A stretch of DNA of 64,000 nt from an uncultured Muribaculaceae bacterium. GTDB taxonomy: Bacteria > Bacillota_I > Bacilli_A > RF39 > UBA660. The notes under the pieces are model-generated. The model made no database searches, was not told the origin of the DNA, and worked only from the letters and a program-made list of their open reading frames with translations. Location of the stretch: positions 5,493 through 69,492 of the forward strand of contig CAZVQX010000002.1 of NCBI GenBank assembly GCA_964629735.1, written 5' to 3'. A program made the position numbers and the translations under genes. Shown here one piece after another: positions 18,907 through 64,000 of this stretch (within the stretch, counting starts at the first letter, position 1; every line of letters begins with the position of its first letter).

Positions 18907-19752
18907 TCAATATTTATCATTTAAATCTAAGTTATAAGTATTAATAGCAATACCTAAAACAAAAACATAAGATAAAATATACGCCCAGATCATAAGGACC
19001 ATAATCGATGATAAACTACCATAAAAAATATCATAATTAGCTATATTACTGGCATAATATGAATAGATTGAAGTTGCTACTAACCAAGAAAAAGTAGTGA
19101 AAACAGCACCTTTTCTAGTATTTTTACTTGTAACACTAATATCAGGAGCGATTGCGTATATAAAATTAATTGTAAAGAAAATAATAACAAAGCTAATTGG
19201 CCATTTTAATAATACAAATATTGAATACAATAGTTTTACTGTTTCTTTATTACTAATAAAGCTTAATAATAATTTTATTAAAACATTACCAAATGCTAAG
19301 ACAATTAATATAAACAAAAATAAAAATACTAATACAAATGATAAAATAAAAGCTTTTATTCTTCGTTTAATTTTAGATGATTCATCAATTTGATATAGTG
19401 TATTTGAAGCAATAATAACTGAATATAAGCCATTAGAAGCAATTACAAATCCTATTATTATAAATAGGCCAACATTAAAGTTAAAACCTTTACCCGATAT
19501 AATAGGTACTAATATCTTACTTACTTCTCTAGGAAATGTTCGATTCATAAAATTAATAAATGAAGCAATTGATATATTAAAAAAAGATGCAAAAAACACA
19601 AACAATGTAATTATGGGAACAATTGATAATACAAGTGAAAAGGCCAGATTACCTGGTAATATTTCCATTTCTGGTTTTTGAAATACGGTCGATAATTTTT
19701 GGCCTTCTTTAGTAGTAAAAATTTTTTTATTAGTCAATTTTTTGATCTTCAC
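18907..19752 (-). CDS. YihY/BrkB (ribonuclease BN-like) family membrane protein
   Basis: 281 aa, six predicted TM helices, typical YihY layout. Overlaps the GGDEF gene 3' end by 23 nt. Confidence 0.65.
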   Translation of the reverse strand: MKIKKLTNKKIFTTKEGQKLSTVFQKPEMEILPGNLAFSLVLSIVPIITLFVFFASFFNISIASFINFMNRTFPREVSKILVPIISGKGFNFNVGLFIIIGFVIASNGLYSVIIASNTLYQIDESSKIKRRIKAFILSFVLVFLFLFILIVLAFGNVLIKLLLSFISNKETVKLLYSIFVLLKWPISFVIIFFTINFIYAIAPDISVTSKNTRKGAVFTTFSWLVATSIYSYYASNIANYDIFYGSLSSIMVLMIWAYILSYVFVLGIAINTYNLDLNDKY

Positions 19753-21817
19753 TTTCTTTATTATCGCGCATATCTAATGTTGCTTCAATAATAGCATCAT
19801 CTACTGTTTTTATAGCGTCTACTATCATACTATAACCAATTGCAGCACCAAACCCGTGCGCTAATGACTTAAACTCTTTATTTAATTTACGAATATAAGA
19901 AACAACTTCTTTTTCTTCATGACCAACTAAATAAACAAGAAATTCATTACCATCAGTTCTTATAATATCACTGTTTTCAGTTTGATTTTTTATTAATATA
20001 TTAGCAGCATCTTTAATAACCATATCGCCTTCGCTATGACCATAGTTATCATTAATATATGCAATATTATTTAAGTCAATAATAACAATAGTTTGCGGAT
20101 ATACTTCACTCTCATCCCATATTTCTATATTATCATTTAAATAATTTCGATTTTTCAAAGATGTTAACAGATCAATATATTTTAATTTTTCTTCTTTTGA
20201 TAAAACGTTTTTGACTTTTTTCTTATCTTTACGAACAGATGTAAATAAAGCTGTAGTTGCACCAATAATTATAATTAATGATGTAAGAACAACTAAACTT
20301 TTAATTATAATTGGTTTTTTATCAATGTTAAATAGATTATAATACGCATCGTTTTCAATGCTTTTATTATTAACAAATGATAAATAAAAGTTAAAGAAAT
20401 CATTAAAGACTTTATTATCTTTTATATCCCTTGCTACAAAATTATAATTAGTTTTTAATTGTTCTTCATAATTAACTTGATAGTTTTTTAATTGATTATT
20501 TAAAAAATATTTATATACATTAGAATCAATAACAATAATTGAATCTTTGTTTATATTTTTTATTAATTCTAAAACATTATTAAATGATTTAACCTTTAAT
20601 TTTTGTTCCAACAAATAATTATTAATAACATCACCTTTTAATGTTAAAACTTCTACATTTTGTAATGAATTAAGTGAATTAATAATTAAATTGTTTTTAA
20701 TATGACTAACAACTACAAATGAGTTTGAATAAACTGGAATAGTGTTATAAATATCCATATCATATTCATTGATGCTAAGATTATTCATCATTAAATCTAG
20801 CTTATTACTATTAAAATCTTGTAACATCATTTTAATTGATTTATAACTCTTATAATTTATTTCAATATTAGCCATTTTAGAAAATGCTTTTAAAAATTCA
20901 CTGTTATAACCCTTTAATTTATTATTAATTAAAGTATCATATGGTGCATTTTCAACAAATCCATATGTATAACGTTTACTTCTAAAATCAACGCGTGATT
21001 TTTCCATAGTTTTGTTATAAGTAAAATAACTATTAGCTAAATGATTATTGTATTTACTTTCAAACTTTTCTTGTGACCATTTATCATAATATTTTTTCAA
21101 AATATTATTTAATTTATCTGTCTTTCCTAATGTTAAAACAATATACTTGTTCATTTCTGTTATGTTATAAGCAATATTTAATTTTGTTTCAATAATTTTT
21201 TCTAAATACATTGTTTTGGGTACAATTATAGCATTAATTGGATTAACTGTTTGATTAGTATTATCTTCACTTTCTATTTGAGCAGGCATCATATCATTAA
21301 ACATCTTATCTATATCATCATAAGTTTTAAAAACGTTATTAAATGAACCTTTTAAATAAGTATTAACAGTATCTACTTCTTTACTTAAAACCCCAATGGT
21401 TAATCCTTTTATTTCTTTTAAATCTTGAAATTTTTGTTTATTCCTAGTAACAATAACATATTCATCTTTATATAATAAAATATCGTTTTTAGTCAATTGA
21501 TCAACAACATTAAAAGAATATTCTGGAATATCTTTTTCATTATATTGAAAGGATACTTTATTGAGAACCAAACCTGTTGTATTTTCTAAACTTTTTAAAA
21601 AATCAAAGAAAACACCATTACCACCATAATTAAATATTGGAACATCGTTAATTAACCCAATATCAATTACACTATTTTTATTTTTATCAATCCATTGTTT
21701 TTCTATTAAGTTAAGCGTTGTTTTTTTGTCTTCTTTATTATATATAATATATATACTTCCGGCTAATAAAACTAATATTATAGCACTGATAATAATCATT
21801 ATTTTTTTATTTTTCAT
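19730..21817 (-). CDS. Sensor protein with an extracytoplasmic tandem solute-binding-like region flanked by two TM helices and a cytoplasmic GGDEF domain in which GGDEF is replaced by DGNEF
   Basis: GGDEF-domain signatures IIDLNNIAYINDNYGHSEGDMV and IIRTDGNEFLVYL. TM helices at residues about 5-25 and about 508-530. The region between them resembles SBP_bac_3-type binding domains. Confidence 0.7.
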   Translation of the reverse strand: MKNKKIMIIISAIILVLLAGSIYIIYNKEDKKTTLNLIEKQWIDKNKNSVIDIGLINDVPIFNYGGNGVFFDFLKSLENTTGLVLNKVSFQYNEKDIPEYSFNVVDQLTKNDILLYKDEYVIVTRNKQKFQDLKEIKGLTIGVLSKEVDTVNTYLKGSFNNVFKTYDDIDKMFNDMMPAQIESEDNTNQTVNPINAIIVPKTMYLEKIIETKLNIAYNITEMNKYIVLTLGKTDKLNNILKKYYDKWSQEKFESKYNNHLANSYFTYNKTMEKSRVDFRSKRYTYGFVENAPYDTLINNKLKGYNSEFLKAFSKMANIEINYKSYKSIKMMLQDFNSNKLDLMMNNLSINEYDMDIYNTIPVYSNSFVVVSHIKNNLIINSLNSLQNVEVLTLKGDVINNYLLEQKLKVKSFNNVLELIKNINKDSIIVIDSNVYKYFLNNQLKNYQVNYEEQLKTNYNFVARDIKDNKVFNDFFNFYLSFVNNKSIENDAYYNLFNIDKKPIIIKSLVVLTSLIIIIGATTALFTSVRKDKKKVKNVLSKEEKLKYIDLLTSLKNRNYLNDNIEIWDESEVYPQTIVIIDLNNIAYINDNYGHSEGDMVIKDAANILIKNQTENSDIIRTDGNEFLVYLVGHEEKEVVSYIRKLNKEFKSLAHGFGAAIGYSMIVDAIKTVDDAIIEATLDMRDNKESEDQKID

Positions 21818-61314: not shown

Positions 61315-63930
61315 TTATTTTGACGGAATTATTGACATATCAAAATTTCGCATTTCACTAATGTTTACACCATCGTGTTCAGTACTAACATTCCTCAAAG
61401 CATTAAATTTAATGCCGGTAAGTTTAGATTTCTTAGGCTTTAAATTAATATATGTTAATGGATAACTAGCAATACCAGTACTACCGTTTTCATTTATTAT
61501 ATCAAAAACAGTTGGCATCAATCCTGATGGTCTTCCTTCATTTGTTATTGATGATATTGTGACTAAAGGTTCTATATATCCATTGTTAACCGAATCTTTA
61601 ATATTTCCAATATAACTATCTTCAAAAATCAATTTTAAATTTGATATTTCCATATCTCCACCACTATAACCAAAATAAAATAATAATCGATGCCAGTTTT
61701 TAAAATTATCCGGTTGTTTAATTATATTAATTGTATTTTCCCCAATAGTAACTGGCACTGATCCACCTGCGTTCTCTGGTGAGCTTAACAATTTAAAATC
61801 ATCATCATTATATGGTCTTAAACAATTACCATAATAATAGTTACTGGTATTACCTGTTGTATAAATATTATAAGAGGTGCACCAATTATTTAAATCAATT
61901 TCAGGATTGTTAGTTGTATATAAATTTAAGTATTTAGATTCTATTTTAATACCATAATCAGGAGTTATTTCTTTTAGTTTATCGATTAAAACAACCGGTT
62001 CTTGAAACCCTTTAATTAAATTTAAACTTTTATCATATTTAACAAGTATTGCATCACTATGACCTTTATTAAAGTTTTTTAATTCAACATCACTTGAAAA
62101 AGTTGTACCAGCTACAACATAATTATTATCCTTTGTTTTTATCATTTTATAAAAAGCATCACTATTACTACCACCAAATATATGTTTATCTACAATCATT
62201 CCATTAGTAGCATTATACTTTATTAAAACTGCTTTTTTATATCCAGTATCTGCAATATTGAGGCTTTGTAAATCATAATCAACTGACTTTGAATAGCCAA
62301 CGCTAATAAAATAATCATCTGACAATTTTAATATATCATATAACAAATCCTCATTACTACCACCAAAACTCTTTTTAAATAATACATTTGTTAATGTTTT
62401 ATCATACTTTACTATAATTCCATCACTAATTATATTAGTTGTTTTTTTTATACCTTCCATCTCCATTTGTGAAGAATGACTATACCCAACGGCTATGTAC
62501 CCATCATTAACTTCAATAACTGTTAAAAATCTTTCATTTGACTCGCCCCTAAATGTTTTTTTATATTGGAGTTTACCAGTAGAATCATATTTTACAATTA
62601 AAGCTTCACTATTTAATTTTCCAGGATTATAGCCTAACCCTTCCATATCACCATCATTCGAGTTGGAATAGCCTACAGTTATATAGCCGCCATCTGATGT
62701 TTTTTTTACATCACTAAACATATCGTCATAAGTCCCACCAAATAAAGTTCTCCAAACCACTTTTAATTGCTCATCTAGTTTTAAAATAATAGCCTCATCC
62801 CTACGTGCTATTAAATCATAATTTAAAAAATCACCATTTTTAGGAGAAGGATCAACCAAACCAACTAGAACAAAACCATCATTTACTTTAATTATCCTTC
62901 TAAACTGTTCTGAGCCAGTACCACTTGTTCCATAACTTTTTTTAAATAATAATTCTCCCGTTTTACTATATTTTACAATTATAGCATCCGCTGTCCCACC
63001 ATTATATATATTTTGTAAATCACCATCAATACTATATGCTTGCCCTACCGCTATATATCCATCTTGGGTTTCAACAACACTATGAAAAGTATCATTATTA
63101 CTACCGCCAAAATTTTTACTCCATTCTACTAGCCCATTGGATGAAAATTTCACAATTATAGCATCATATTTTCCATTGTTTGTCGTTCCATATTTTGTTA
63201 TTATTTCTGAATTACTGCGACCAACAGCTACGTATCCACCATCACTTGTCTCTATAACATCATTAAACTCATCTAAATATTTTCCACCATAACTTACATA
63301 ATGACTAGCAAAAGTAGTTGCTTCTTGCAAACAATCCACAAATGCATTATAGTTATAATTATTGCTACTTGTTTTTTCAATTTCAACATATCCAACACAT
63401 CTGTTATTTAAGTCCATTGGTAATCTTAATTCATCAACTATACCATTATTCATTAATATATTTAAATCAATTGTTTTTTTATCACCTACATTAATAGGAA
63501 AATTATTTTTATCTTTTTTAATTCCATTTATCATTTGTTCTTGATACCATGCAAAAAATGAATCATTATAAAGTTGTAATGAGTATCCCACAGCTTTACC
63601 GTTTTTATAGAGTAATATTTTTGTATCATCACTTATTTTCATATTGTTTAATACATTTATTAAATCTTTTTTCAAATAATTCTCTTGTTTTAATTTACCT
63701 ACTTCAATATAGCTGACATTATCTTTCCATGTAAAATCAATTGAATTAGAAGCATAATATAACTCAGCAGCTCGTTCAATACCTTTTTTACTTGCATTAA
63801 AAGCACCATATTTTGCACGATTTATTACAATGTTAATAATTGGTACCGATATGACTAAAATTATTCCTAATATTACTATTACCGCTAATAATTCAATTAA
63901 TGTAAAACCTCTCTCAATATTTTTATTCAT
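61315..63930 (-). CDS. Large modular protein with a type IV prepilin N-terminus, a seven-bladed SBBP-type beta-propeller and a C-terminal domain of about 270 aa
   Basis: MNKNIER-G-FTLIELLAVIVILGIIL prepilin cleavage/methylation motif. Seven repeats of the type FGGSxxDxFxxVxxTxDGGYxxVGYSxSxDGD. Start set at the ATG at 63930. Confidence 0.65.
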   Translation of the reverse strand: MNKNIERGFTLIELLAVIVILGIILVISVPIINIVINRAKYGAFNASKKGIERAAELYYASNSIDFTWKDNVSYIEVGKLKQENYLKKDLINVLNNMKISDDTKILLYKNGKAVGYSLQLYNDSFFAWYQEQMINGIKKDKNNFPINVGDKKTIDLNILMNNGIVDELRLPMDLNNRCVGYVEIEKTSSNNYNYNAFVDCLQEATTFASHYVSYGGKYLDEFNDVIETSDGGYVAVGRSNSEIITKYGTTNNGKYDAIIVKFSSNGLVEWSKNFGGSNNDTFHSVVETQDGYIAVGQAYSIDGDLQNIYNGGTADAIIVKYSKTGELLFKKSYGTSGTGSEQFRRIIKVNDGFVLVGLVDPSPKNGDFLNYDLIARRDEAIILKLDEQLKVVWRTLFGGTYDDMFSDVKKTSDGGYITVGYSNSNDGDMEGLGYNPGKLNSEALIVKYDSTGKLQYKKTFRGESNERFLTVIEVNDGYIAVGYSHSSQMEMEGIKKTTNIISDGIIVKYDKTLTNVLFKKSFGGSNEDLLYDILKLSDDYFISVGYSKSVDYDLQSLNIADTGYKKAVLIKYNATNGMIVDKHIFGGSNSDAFYKMIKTKDNNYVVAGTTFSSDVELKNFNKGHSDAILVKYDKSLNLIKGFQEPVVLIDKLKEITPDYGIKIESKYLNLYTTNNPEIDLNNWCTSYNIYTTGNTSNYYYGNCLRPYNDDDFKLLSSPENAGGSVPVTIGENTINIIKQPDNFKNWHRLLFYFGYSGGDMEISNLKLIFEDSYIGNIKDSVNNGYIEPLVTISSITNEGRPSGLMPTVFDIINENGSTGIASYPLTYINLKPKKSKLTGIKFNALRNVSTEHDGVNISEMRNFDMSIIPSK

Positions 63931-64000
63931 AAGACACACCCTTTCCATTTATTATAACCAATTTAATCATCTTTATTTAACGGATAATATAATGAATATA

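Follow-up and report, generated by a model that had tools for sequence, protein, structure and literature searches.

A solitary gene for a putative three-module minor type IV pilin with a beta-propeller and a terminal beta-sandwich in an uncultured member of the Bacilli

The gene and its surroundings

The gene occupies positions 61315..63930 on the minus strand of the window (i.e., the whole 64-kb stretch of DNA that was analyzed) and comprises 871 codons and a stop codon (61315-61317), as given by the ORF list and the database protein P0001. These are the coordinates proposed by an earlier sequence-only reading, and the start coincides with the database gene call: P0001 (871 aa) shows 100% identity to the protein translated from 63930. 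The length of 877 aa given by that reading holds for the single intact minus-strand ORF 61315..63948 counted from its first ATG, but not for the protein from the likelier start. The upstream in-frame ATG (63948), as read directly from the sequence, overlaps the Shine-Dalgarno-like GGAAAGGG (63946-63939; together 63939..63948, minus strand). The ATG at 63930 is the likelier translation start, since it matches the database call, gives a short leader as in the relatives, and is preceded 8 nt upstream by a Shine-Dalgarno-like AAAGGG (direct sequence reading). The product has a computed mass of 97.5 kDa and a pI of 5.4, and the GC content of the gene is 27.7% versus 26.3% for the window. Two independent assemblies carry identical copies of the intact 2.6-kb ORF. 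A DNA tandem repeat search found nothing relevant in the gene, so the repeats described below exist at the protein level only. A promoter and terminator scan returned 31 promoter-like sites, where 23 would be expected, and no terminator, an uninformative outcome in DNA of 26% GC.

The gene is solitary, located between clpB and a divergent HTH gene, with no adjoining pilin gene, and the prepilin motif was found once in the 64-kb window, in this gene only. Absence of other pilus or competence genes from the window, already proposed from the sequence, was borne out by Pfam assignments for nearly all ORFs of at least 120 aa and by a whole-window tblastn search, which found no homologs of PilB, PilT, PilC, PilD, or PilM. 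Neither the 5.3 kb beyond the window end nor about 75 loci in related MAGs, each covering up to +/-10 kb around a prepilin-type gene, gave a homolog of these proteins; the later loci L091-L093 were checked by Pfam gene lists only. The machinery search suggested earlier was thereby run on the window, its flank, and related loci, but PilB, PilC, and PilD were found in none of them. Two candidates were rejected upon closer reading: a MAG locus (L040) picked up as T2SSE by a Walker A regular expression is an ABC transporter pair, and a 726-aa ORF (42444..44624) considered as ComEC is PriA. One family-bearing MAG encodes both ComEA and ComEC, functional partners of a type IV pseudopilus in Gram-positives. 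Genes for PBP2, an LCP-PASTA protein, an LtaS-like sulfatase, and PcsB are present in the window, which indicates that the organism is walled.

N-terminal pilin module

The leader peptide MNKNIERG (residues 1-8; 63907..63930, minus strand) is recognized above cut-off by both Pfam N_methyl (PF07963; 28.5 bits versus 21.2) and TIGR02532 (28 bits versus 16.3). The class III signal peptide recognized in the sequence-only reading was therefore confirmed, but the cleavage bar, which had been set before the glycine, belongs after it. In the resulting N-terminus, MNKNIERG followed by FTLIELLAVIVILGIILVISVP, the predicted prepilin-peptidase cleavage after Gly8 puts Glu at position +5. G-1, F+1, and E+5 are invariant in 50 of 50 full-length relatives, whose leaders are short and basic, with a modal length of 5 residues including the glycine, versus 8 in the window protein.

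The mature pilin begins with the alpha1 helix (residues 9-61; 63748..63906, minus strand), which carries F1-T-L-I-E5, Gly14, and Pro22. AlphaFold2 (AF2) predicts a 51-residue helix spanning residues 11-61, with a beta-sheet head behind it. The helix is better conserved than any other part of the protein, Pro30 (Pro22 of the mature chain) being at least 90% conserved in the family, and according to a hydropathy scan it harbors the sole hydrophobic segment; an LPXTG motif is absent. The pilin head (residues 62-143; 63502..63747, minus strand) consists in the AF2 model of strands 72-76, 104-110, and 113-119 and a helix at 123-139.

The pilin module shares 31-44% identity with PilA proteins of 144-172 aa from cultured Bacillota. 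In BLASTP alignments, residues 6-147 match the whole 150-aa PilA of a Brevibacillus pil operon at 31% identity, and residues 6-121 match a PilA of 144 aa from Bacillota Lsc_1132 at 44%. Their operons have the order pilB-pilT-pilC-pilA-pilD-pilMNO, with pilC and pilD as the neighbors of pilA. The full-length fold search was dominated by propeller matches, and the evidence for the pilin head comes from the AF2 helix and strands together with the PilA alignment. Judged by its sequence, the N-terminal part is a genuine type IV pilin module; a plain membrane anchor would not need G-1, F+1, E+5, and Pro22, and their conservation favors a pilin. A candidate for the major pilin subunit is L017, a short pilin of 139 aa from a MAG that also carries a member of the family (L009); the N-terminal region of L017 shows 47% identity to the window protein across 73 aligned residues.

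Connector, propeller, and terminal beta-sandwich

AF2 modeled the whole protein with a pLDDT of 89.1 and a pTM of 0.85, as five parts: alpha1 with the pilin head, a Cys-bridged connector, a seven-bladed propeller, a linker, and a C-terminal beta-sandwich. The pilin head, propeller, and C-terminal domain expected from the sequence are thus all predicted, the propeller and the beta-sandwich being folded with confidence. The connector (residues 144-205; 63316..63501, minus strand) contains a beta-hairpin formed by AF2 strands 179-188 and 191-199 and flanked by Cys178 and Cys200, which are invariant in the family and probably form a disulfide. Residues 144-200 also match separately, with 46% identity, in another prepilin-type protein (L053).

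The propeller (residues 206-635; 62026..63315, minus strand) is supported by AF2, phmmer, and Foldseek. In the AF2 model, residues 211-632 contain 28 strands, i.e., seven blades of four strands each, which agrees with the seven tandem repeats noted before; their period, however, is 57-64 aa rather than about 45. Each blade carries the motif F/YGG(S/T)xxDxF ... DGGY.AVG.S.S.DGD. The proposed SBBP type found no support in Pfam: the window protein has no match to the SBBP model (PF06739) at E <= 1, and the precomputed Pfam lists of its best 120 homologs do not contain it either. Among solved structures, the closest propeller is that of CylK, both by sequence (phmmer, E 1.5e-8) and by fold (Foldseek, PDB ID: 7fh8, E 3.9e-23, identity 18%). 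Propellers of this type recur in secreted or surface proteins with dockerin/cohesin, Big_2, or T9SS tails.

The remainder behind the propeller amounts to 236 aa, not 270 as first estimated, and consists of a 35-aa linker and a beta-sandwich of about 200 aa. The linker (residues 636-670; 61921..62025, minus strand) is largely without regular secondary structure in the AF2 model; its sequence is conserved, with a regional identity of 61%. The beta-sandwich (residues 671-871; 61318..61920, minus strand) is the most divergent module of the protein and contains Cys684 and Cys703, which probably form a second disulfide. The protein has only these four cysteines, in two conserved pairs, as expected of an extracellular protein. 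The C-terminal domain is rare and always terminal in its carriers; where N-termini are readable, it mostly occurs on other prepilin-like proteins, behind Ig, fn3, or lectin stalks. A BFVD fold search with the domain gave no match at E <= 0.001, and phmmer found nothing among PDB sequences. A phage receptor-binding origin of the domain was considered and is unsupported, as ten carriers that do not look like pilins had no match in PHROGs.

Relatives and sequence variation

The window protein belongs to an unannotated family of proteins of about 865 aa with hundreds of database members, found in uncultured low-GC Bacilli. Members are 46-57% identical, with motifs and both Cys pairs strictly conserved. 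Conservation declines from the pilin module (71/63%) through the propeller (53%) to the C-terminal domain (47%), and an entropy profile places the variation hot spots in blades 3-4 and the C-terminal domain. In related genomes, the genes form tandem arrays of 3 to at least 9 paralogs, often beside housekeeping operons (e.g., rpoBC and mraZ), and many large prepilin-type proteins (300-1400 aa) are scattered among housekeeping genes in related lineages. Within the arrays, the pilin module is retained and the paralogs differ in blades 3-4 and the C-terminal domain, a pattern suggestive of a set of different binding specificities or antigenic variants. Tandem amplification with variation on two surfaces would mark a likely ligand-binding or antigenic interface, and the family offers a concrete target for binding studies in little-known uncultured Bacilli with small genomes.

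Comparison with known systems

Modular pilins combine an N-terminal pilin module with modules that are not specific to type IV pilus biology (Raynaud et al. 2021, PMC8179133). The window protein has this composition, with a pilin part (residues 1-143), a connector (144-205), a CylK-like propeller (206-635), and a beta-sandwich (671-871). The modular pilin architecture proposed at the outset is upheld by the motif scores, the invariant residues, alpha1, the identity to PilA, and the confidently modeled propeller and beta-sandwich. Such proteins show how simple type IV filaments gain many functions, and few have been studied. Those catalogued so far are the ones whose modules carry database signatures, whereas the cargo of the large family documented here (a CylK-like propeller and a rare beta-sandwich) is invisible to Pfam. 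The window protein adds a well-supported example to a known class and does not represent a new kind of system.

The window protein, at about 96-97.5 kDa, is about twice the size of the characterized modular pilins of Streptococcus sanguinis. There, PilB joins a pilin to a vWA domain and PilC joins one to a concanavalin-A-like lectin (PMC8179133; Shahin et al. 2023, PMC9934059). Like them, the window protein has a monoderm host, a canonical class III signal peptide, and a small pilin module followed by bulky non-pilus modules, and by analogy its expected role may likewise be ligand binding while presented on a filament. It differs in carrying two grafted modules and a connector, neither module having a Pfam signature, and in that its gene lies outside a pil locus and its relatives form tandem paralog arrays. 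Large minor pilins are also represented by CofB, a type IVb minor pilin of ETEC with a beta-repeat and a beta-sandwich domain, and by the ComZ/GspK type (PMC8179133). As in the window protein, their extra domains lack sequence signatures; their place is the filament tip, where they act as initiator or cap. CofB and the window protein both end in a beta-sandwich; however, CofB is encoded in its own pilus operon, forms a tip trimer, and has a beta-repeat domain where the window protein has a propeller, and neither CofB nor ComZ/GspK-type proteins gave a sequence or fold match to it.

The PilY1/PilC tip adhesins of Pseudomonas and Neisseria (IPR008707) link a seven-bladed propeller to type IV pili and adhesion. 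PilY1 itself does not belong to the pilins; it carries a Sec signal and a C-terminal propeller and docks on a minor-pilin tip complex. The likeness to PilY1 drawn in the sequence-only reading is accordingly valid just in the sense of a propeller on a pilus. The window protein has no Pfam match to this family (IPR008707/PF05567), a pilin N-terminus, and no neighboring pilin genes, and no PilY1 structure was among its best 50 fold matches. The CylK/BrtB propeller (PDB ID: 7fh6 and 7ron), in turn, shares with the window protein seven blades of about 60 aa and Gly/Asp-rich junction motifs, the junctions of CylK binding Ca2+ (PMC8916777). CylK is a cytoplasmic biosynthetic enzyme whose N-terminal Ca-binding beta-roll forms half of the active site, whereas in the window protein the propeller is preceded by the pilin module and connector, with neither a beta-roll nor Arg105. 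No entry with a propeller or SBBP architecture was found in the accessible portion of the supplementary lists of Raynaud et al., and a full-text literature search found no paper combining SBBP and pilin.

Proposed function and alternatives

The gene probably encodes a three-module minor type IV pilin, and the sequence features point to an adhesin carried on a pilus as its most likely function. The preprotein would enter the membrane via its single N-terminal hydrophobic helix, after which a prepilin peptidase would remove the 8-residue leader behind Gly8 and methylate Phe1. The alpha1 helix, with Glu5, Gly14, and Pro22, would allow incorporation of the subunit by type IV filament machinery; given the bulk of the 82-kDa C-terminal cargo, a place at the tip or rare incorporation is the most likely. 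Carried by the filament across the Gram-positive wall, the propeller and terminal beta-sandwich would then serve as a binding head whose target is probably a glycan or a different surface ligand. As no pilus machinery was seen in the window, its flank, or the about 75 related MAG loci, display on a filament is something we infer, and cleavage, polymerization, tip location, and ligand binding likewise have the status of predictions. Counting against a pilin are the lack of machinery near the gene, its solitary position, and the unusual size of the subunit.

The same lack of assembly machinery beside the window gene and related giant prepilin genes would also fit a surface protein tethered to the membrane, for which the class III signal peptide serves export and anchoring only and which, cleaved or uncleaved, stays a monomer or forms short stubs without ever joining a long pilus. 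Archaeal sugar-binding 'bindosome' proteins provide a model for such membrane-retained forms, and the scattered prepilin-type proteins of 300-1400 aa look more like a general route of surface display than a dedicated pilus locus. We nevertheless regard such tethering as rather unlikely: the strict conservation of Glu5 and Pro22 and the homology of the head to PilA point to subunit packing in a filament, and in a walled cell a tethered ectodomain of this size would presumably barely clear the wall. A broader and more speculative proposal, which we hold to be quite unlikely, is that the class III signal peptide serves reduced-genome uncultured Bacilli as a general display system for giant, fast-diversifying surface proteins, with the repertoire providing variable attachment or antigenic variation and the C-terminal beta-sandwich constituting a new pilin-specific receptor-binding family. 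If true, the cells might live as epibionts or attached to a host and might lack a long pilus of the conventional type.

The kinship with CylK raises the question of whether a pilus- or surface-displayed enzyme is encoded instead of an adhesin, with a catalytic propeller and the beta-sandwich as an accessory substrate-binding module. This is improbable, as CylK has an interdomain active site to which the N-terminal Ca-binding domain contributes the essential Arg105 (PMC8916777), and the window protein lacks that domain. Identity to CylK is only 18%, no catalytic family of Pfam or NCBIfam matched the window protein, and the variability is highest in blades 3-4, which would be unusual for a conserved active site. 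The gene might also be a non-functional relic or an artefact of annotation, i.e., an orphan pilin gene left after loss of the pilus machinery, which could explain why it stands alone and why about 69 kb of sequence showed no machinery. This reading is very improbable in view of the intact ORF shared by two independent assemblies, the confident AF2 prediction for all modules, the motifs and Cys pairs strictly conserved across a family of 46-57% identity, and the active amplification of that family in relatives.

Gene and domain architecture

The giant pilin gene is best interpreted as encoding a modular minor pilin. It constitutes an intact single open reading frame on the minus strand (61315..63948), in which the first ATG gives an 877-aa product and the ATG at 63930 an 871-aa product. 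The latter start is preferred because it coincides with that of the public annotation (P0001, 100% identity), is preceded by a Shine-Dalgarno-like AAAGGG element 8 nt upstream, and leaves a short, basic leader like those of the relatives, although at 8 residues counting the Gly it exceeds their modal length of 5 (MNKNIERG|FTLIELLAVIVILGIILVISVP, cleavage mark after Gly). The sequence-only reading placed the gene correctly at 61315-63930 but gave it the length of the longer frame, 877 aa. Its proposal of a prepilin N-terminus holds, as PF07963 (28.5 bits, curated threshold 21.2) and TIGR02532 (28 bits, curated threshold 16.3) both match. The encoded protein contains a single hydrophobic segment and lacks an LPXTG motif. 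Its only cysteines are the four at positions 178, 200, 684, and 703; in a 60-sequence family alignment Cys178, Cys200, and Cys703 are invariant and Cys684 is at least 90% conserved.

The AlphaFold2 model built from this alignment is confident (mean pLDDT 89.1, pTM 0.85). It comprises a continuous helix of pilin-α1 length (residues 11-61), a small α/β head (62-143), a connector (144-205) with its final hairpin flanked by Cys178 and Cys200, a propeller of 28 strands forming seven four-stranded blades (211-632), a linker (636-670), and a C-terminal β-sandwich domain (671-871). The pilin-like N-terminus, seven-bladed propeller, and C-terminal domain expected from sequence are all confidently modelled. 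Seven repeats of roughly 45 aa had been described; the number stands, while the blades measure 57-64 aa and the shorter period covers their conserved core only. Tandem Repeats Finder detected no repeats in the DNA of the gene, so the blades repeat at the protein level only.

Pilin identity and genomic context

Gly-1, Phe+1, and Glu+5 show no variation among the 50 full-length relatives inspected, and conservation of Pro22 in the family alignment is at least 90%. In type IV pilins, these residues serve peptidase recognition and helix packing, not membrane anchoring. The alignment of the N-terminal module with short pilins reaches well past the hydrophobic segment: residues 6-121 are 44% identical to a 144-aa protein from Bacillota Lsc_1132, residues 6-112 are 39% identical to a 172-aa Paenibacillus protein, and residues 6-147 are 31% identical to an entire 150-aa Brevibacillus protein. 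In all three loci the matching gene lies between pilC and pilD, within a pilB-pilT-pilC-pilA-pilD-pilM... operon, which on sequence grounds makes the pilin module a homologue of genuine PilA.

The window is a housekeeping region (26% GC) of a cell-walled Firmicute, encoding PolA, DnaE, PriA, AlaRS, GatAB, RuvAB, EF-P, trigger factor, PBP2, an LCP-PASTA protein, an LtaS-like sulfatase, PcsB, and ClpB; clpB and the pilin gene are convergent. As had been noticed, other pilus genes are absent from it: tblastn with PilB, PilT, PilC, PilD, and PilM gave no match, and six-frame motif scanning of the 64 kb revealed no other prepilin. Upstream of 63930, past the window end, two independent assemblies carry a divergent HTH_3 gene of 77 aa followed by frr, dnaJ, and pepF, and no pilin or pilus genes. 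Assembly machinery was found neither in the window and flank nor in ~75 loci surrounding prepilin-type genes in related MAGs; as these loci span a few percent of each genome, the null is absence of evidence. It is the main weakness of the modular minor pilin reading. Indirect support for a filament comes from one family-bearing MAG (L009) that also encodes a 139-aa short pilin (L017), whose N-terminal region shares 47% identity with the window protein across a 73-residue alignment, and from ComEA/ComEC in another.

The protein might instead use its prepilin-type N-terminus merely as the anchor of a surface protein. Scattered genomic positions and the abundance of large prepilin-type proteins in these lineages favor such an anchor, but conservation of Glu5 and Pro22, homology to PilA, and the thick cell wall render it rather unlikely.

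A candidate for local regulation is the 77-aa XRE-family HTH gene (8618-8851 in L084, just past window position 64000), ~165 bp upstream of the pilin gene; its conservation does not extend to the ortholog loci examined (L005). Elsewhere in the window, a 695-aa protein (19730-21817, minus strand) combines SBP_bac_3, a periplasmic-type solute-binding domain, with a GGDEF diguanylate cyclase; in Firmicutes, type IV pili are often under cyclic-di-GMP control. A lysine-rich 642-aa ORF with a coiled-coil-like tail, flanked by greA and the gene for trigger factor (46091-48019, minus strand), matches no Pfam family at E <= 1e-4.

Propeller and C-terminal domain

The nearest solved relative of the propeller by sequence is that of the cyanobacterial enzyme CylK, also seven-bladed (E 1.5e-8), which is also its nearest fold (Foldseek E 3.9e-23, 18% identity). 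The SBBP type suggested earlier is not borne out, as Pfam SBBP has no match to the protein at E <= 1 and is missing from the precomputed domain lists of the 120 homologs listed; the likeness to PilY1 likewise does not extend to class membership. The protein falls outside SBBP (Pfam), PilY1, and CylK-type enzymes. The resemblance to CylK could indicate a displayed enzyme. This is improbable: the CylK active site requires an N-terminal Ca-binding domain supplying Arg105 (PMC8916777), which the window protein lacks, and the variable blades count against a conserved catalytic centre.

The propeller also occurs in non-pilin secreted proteins with dockerin/cohesin, Big_2, or T9SS sorting domains and in one Saccharibacteria protein. 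The C-terminal domain is rare, with 65 clusters in 1.84 billion representatives; it always occupies the extreme C-terminus and mostly follows N-termini of prepilin type combined with Ig, fn3, LamG, or Bsp-like stalks. Eight of its carriers (P0142, P0144, P0145, P0156, P0158, P0159, P0166, and P0177) have a pilin-like N-terminus (K-G-I-T-L-I-A-L-V...) with Ala replacing Glu at +5, and constitute a second, Glu5-less carrier type. Six others (P0141, P0155, P0162, P0163, P0174, and P0179; 220-270 aa) share a conserved 'MSHRLL..DEGTSFP' N-terminus and end in the domain; the two scanned, P0141 and P0163, gave no Pfam and/or PHROGs match.

Family variation and paralog arrays

A word-indexed search returned 914 homologs; among the matches listed, ~55 are full-length (840-880 aa, 46-57% identity), nearly all from MAGs labelled Bacilli, Mollicutes, or Tenericutes and annotated solely as 'prepilin-type N-terminal cleavage/methylation domain-containing protein'. 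Across 46 full-length members, mean pairwise identity is 71% in α1, 63% in the head, 53% in the propeller, and 47% in the C-terminal domain. Entropy is highest in blades 3-4 (residues 326-465) and, within the C-terminal domain, at 680-750 and 790-850, and the α1N segment and head-propeller junction are almost fixed.

While the window holds a single ordinary-looking copy, the ~865-aa gene is tandemly amplified in relatives, with arrays adjoining core operons (rpoBC-rpsL, mraZ/dcw, and greA). At least nine consecutive paralogs occupy 1-22598 of L002 (DHPM01000005.1); four lie between rpoC and rpsL (L085/L086, 10001-20662), four upstream of mraZ (L093, 4848-14726), three upstream of a NUDIX-family gene, rpsL, rpsG, and fusA (L088), and two, with a 475-aa prepilin-Ig protein, beside greA (L091). 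L088 appears to combine two array settings found apart in other assemblies, suggesting inter-array recombination. A relic gene is hardly credible given the ORF, intact and identical in two assemblies, the constraint across the family, and ongoing amplification.

A further four-paralog array (L092, 7380-17881) adjoins a 295-aa tyrosine recombinase (Phage_integrase family, 19091-19978) just downstream, which could be a housekeeping XerC/D or an array-acting enzyme; a 358-aa protein with no Pfam match on record lies between. About 6 kb upstream (1166-3779) are comEA (SLBB and HHH_3) and comEC (DUF4131, Competence, and Lactamase_B), which imply a capacity for DNA uptake; the genome presumably also encodes a Com-type pseudopilus.

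Proposed role and known modular pilins

As a modular minor pilin, the protein would use its pilin module as a carrier for grafted modules; a type IV filament would expose the propeller and terminal β-sandwich beyond the wall as a binding head, with specificity set by the variable surfaces of blades 3-4 and the C-terminal domain. The protein is presumably cleaved, polymerised, located at the tip, and engaged in ligand binding. In relatives, the arrayed paralogs may represent a repertoire, either of specificities or of antigenic variants.

The earlier suggestion of a modular pilin agrees with the structural definition (pilin module, propeller, and β-sandwich), a concept established for PilB and PilC of S. 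sanguinis. A survey that counted >1,200 modular pilins across 264 architectures predicted numerous others whose modules go unrecognised (PMC8179133). Unlike characterised modular pilins, the window protein is larger (96 kDa mature), carries a two-module cargo without database signatures, and is encoded outside any pil locus, and its family is tandemly amplified in relatives. The more interesting biology may lie in the arrays of paralogs, in a C-terminal domain associated with pilins, and in a possible general class-III display system in these lineages, all of which rest on related genomes.

Many further large prepilin-type proteins (475-1419 aa; L088 1-1876, L091 5705-7132, and L026 9977-14233), with Ig-like, HYR, or Glug modules, occur in these MAG lineages and point to a broad modular-pilin expansion. 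Record titles of L004, L005, L007 (CAYNHT01, CAYXLG01), and L091 (JBLNAG01) read 'uncultured Muribaculaceae' or 'Ignavibacteriales'; these labels look wrong, since the cell-wall, division, and pilin genes resemble those of low-GC Gram-positives.
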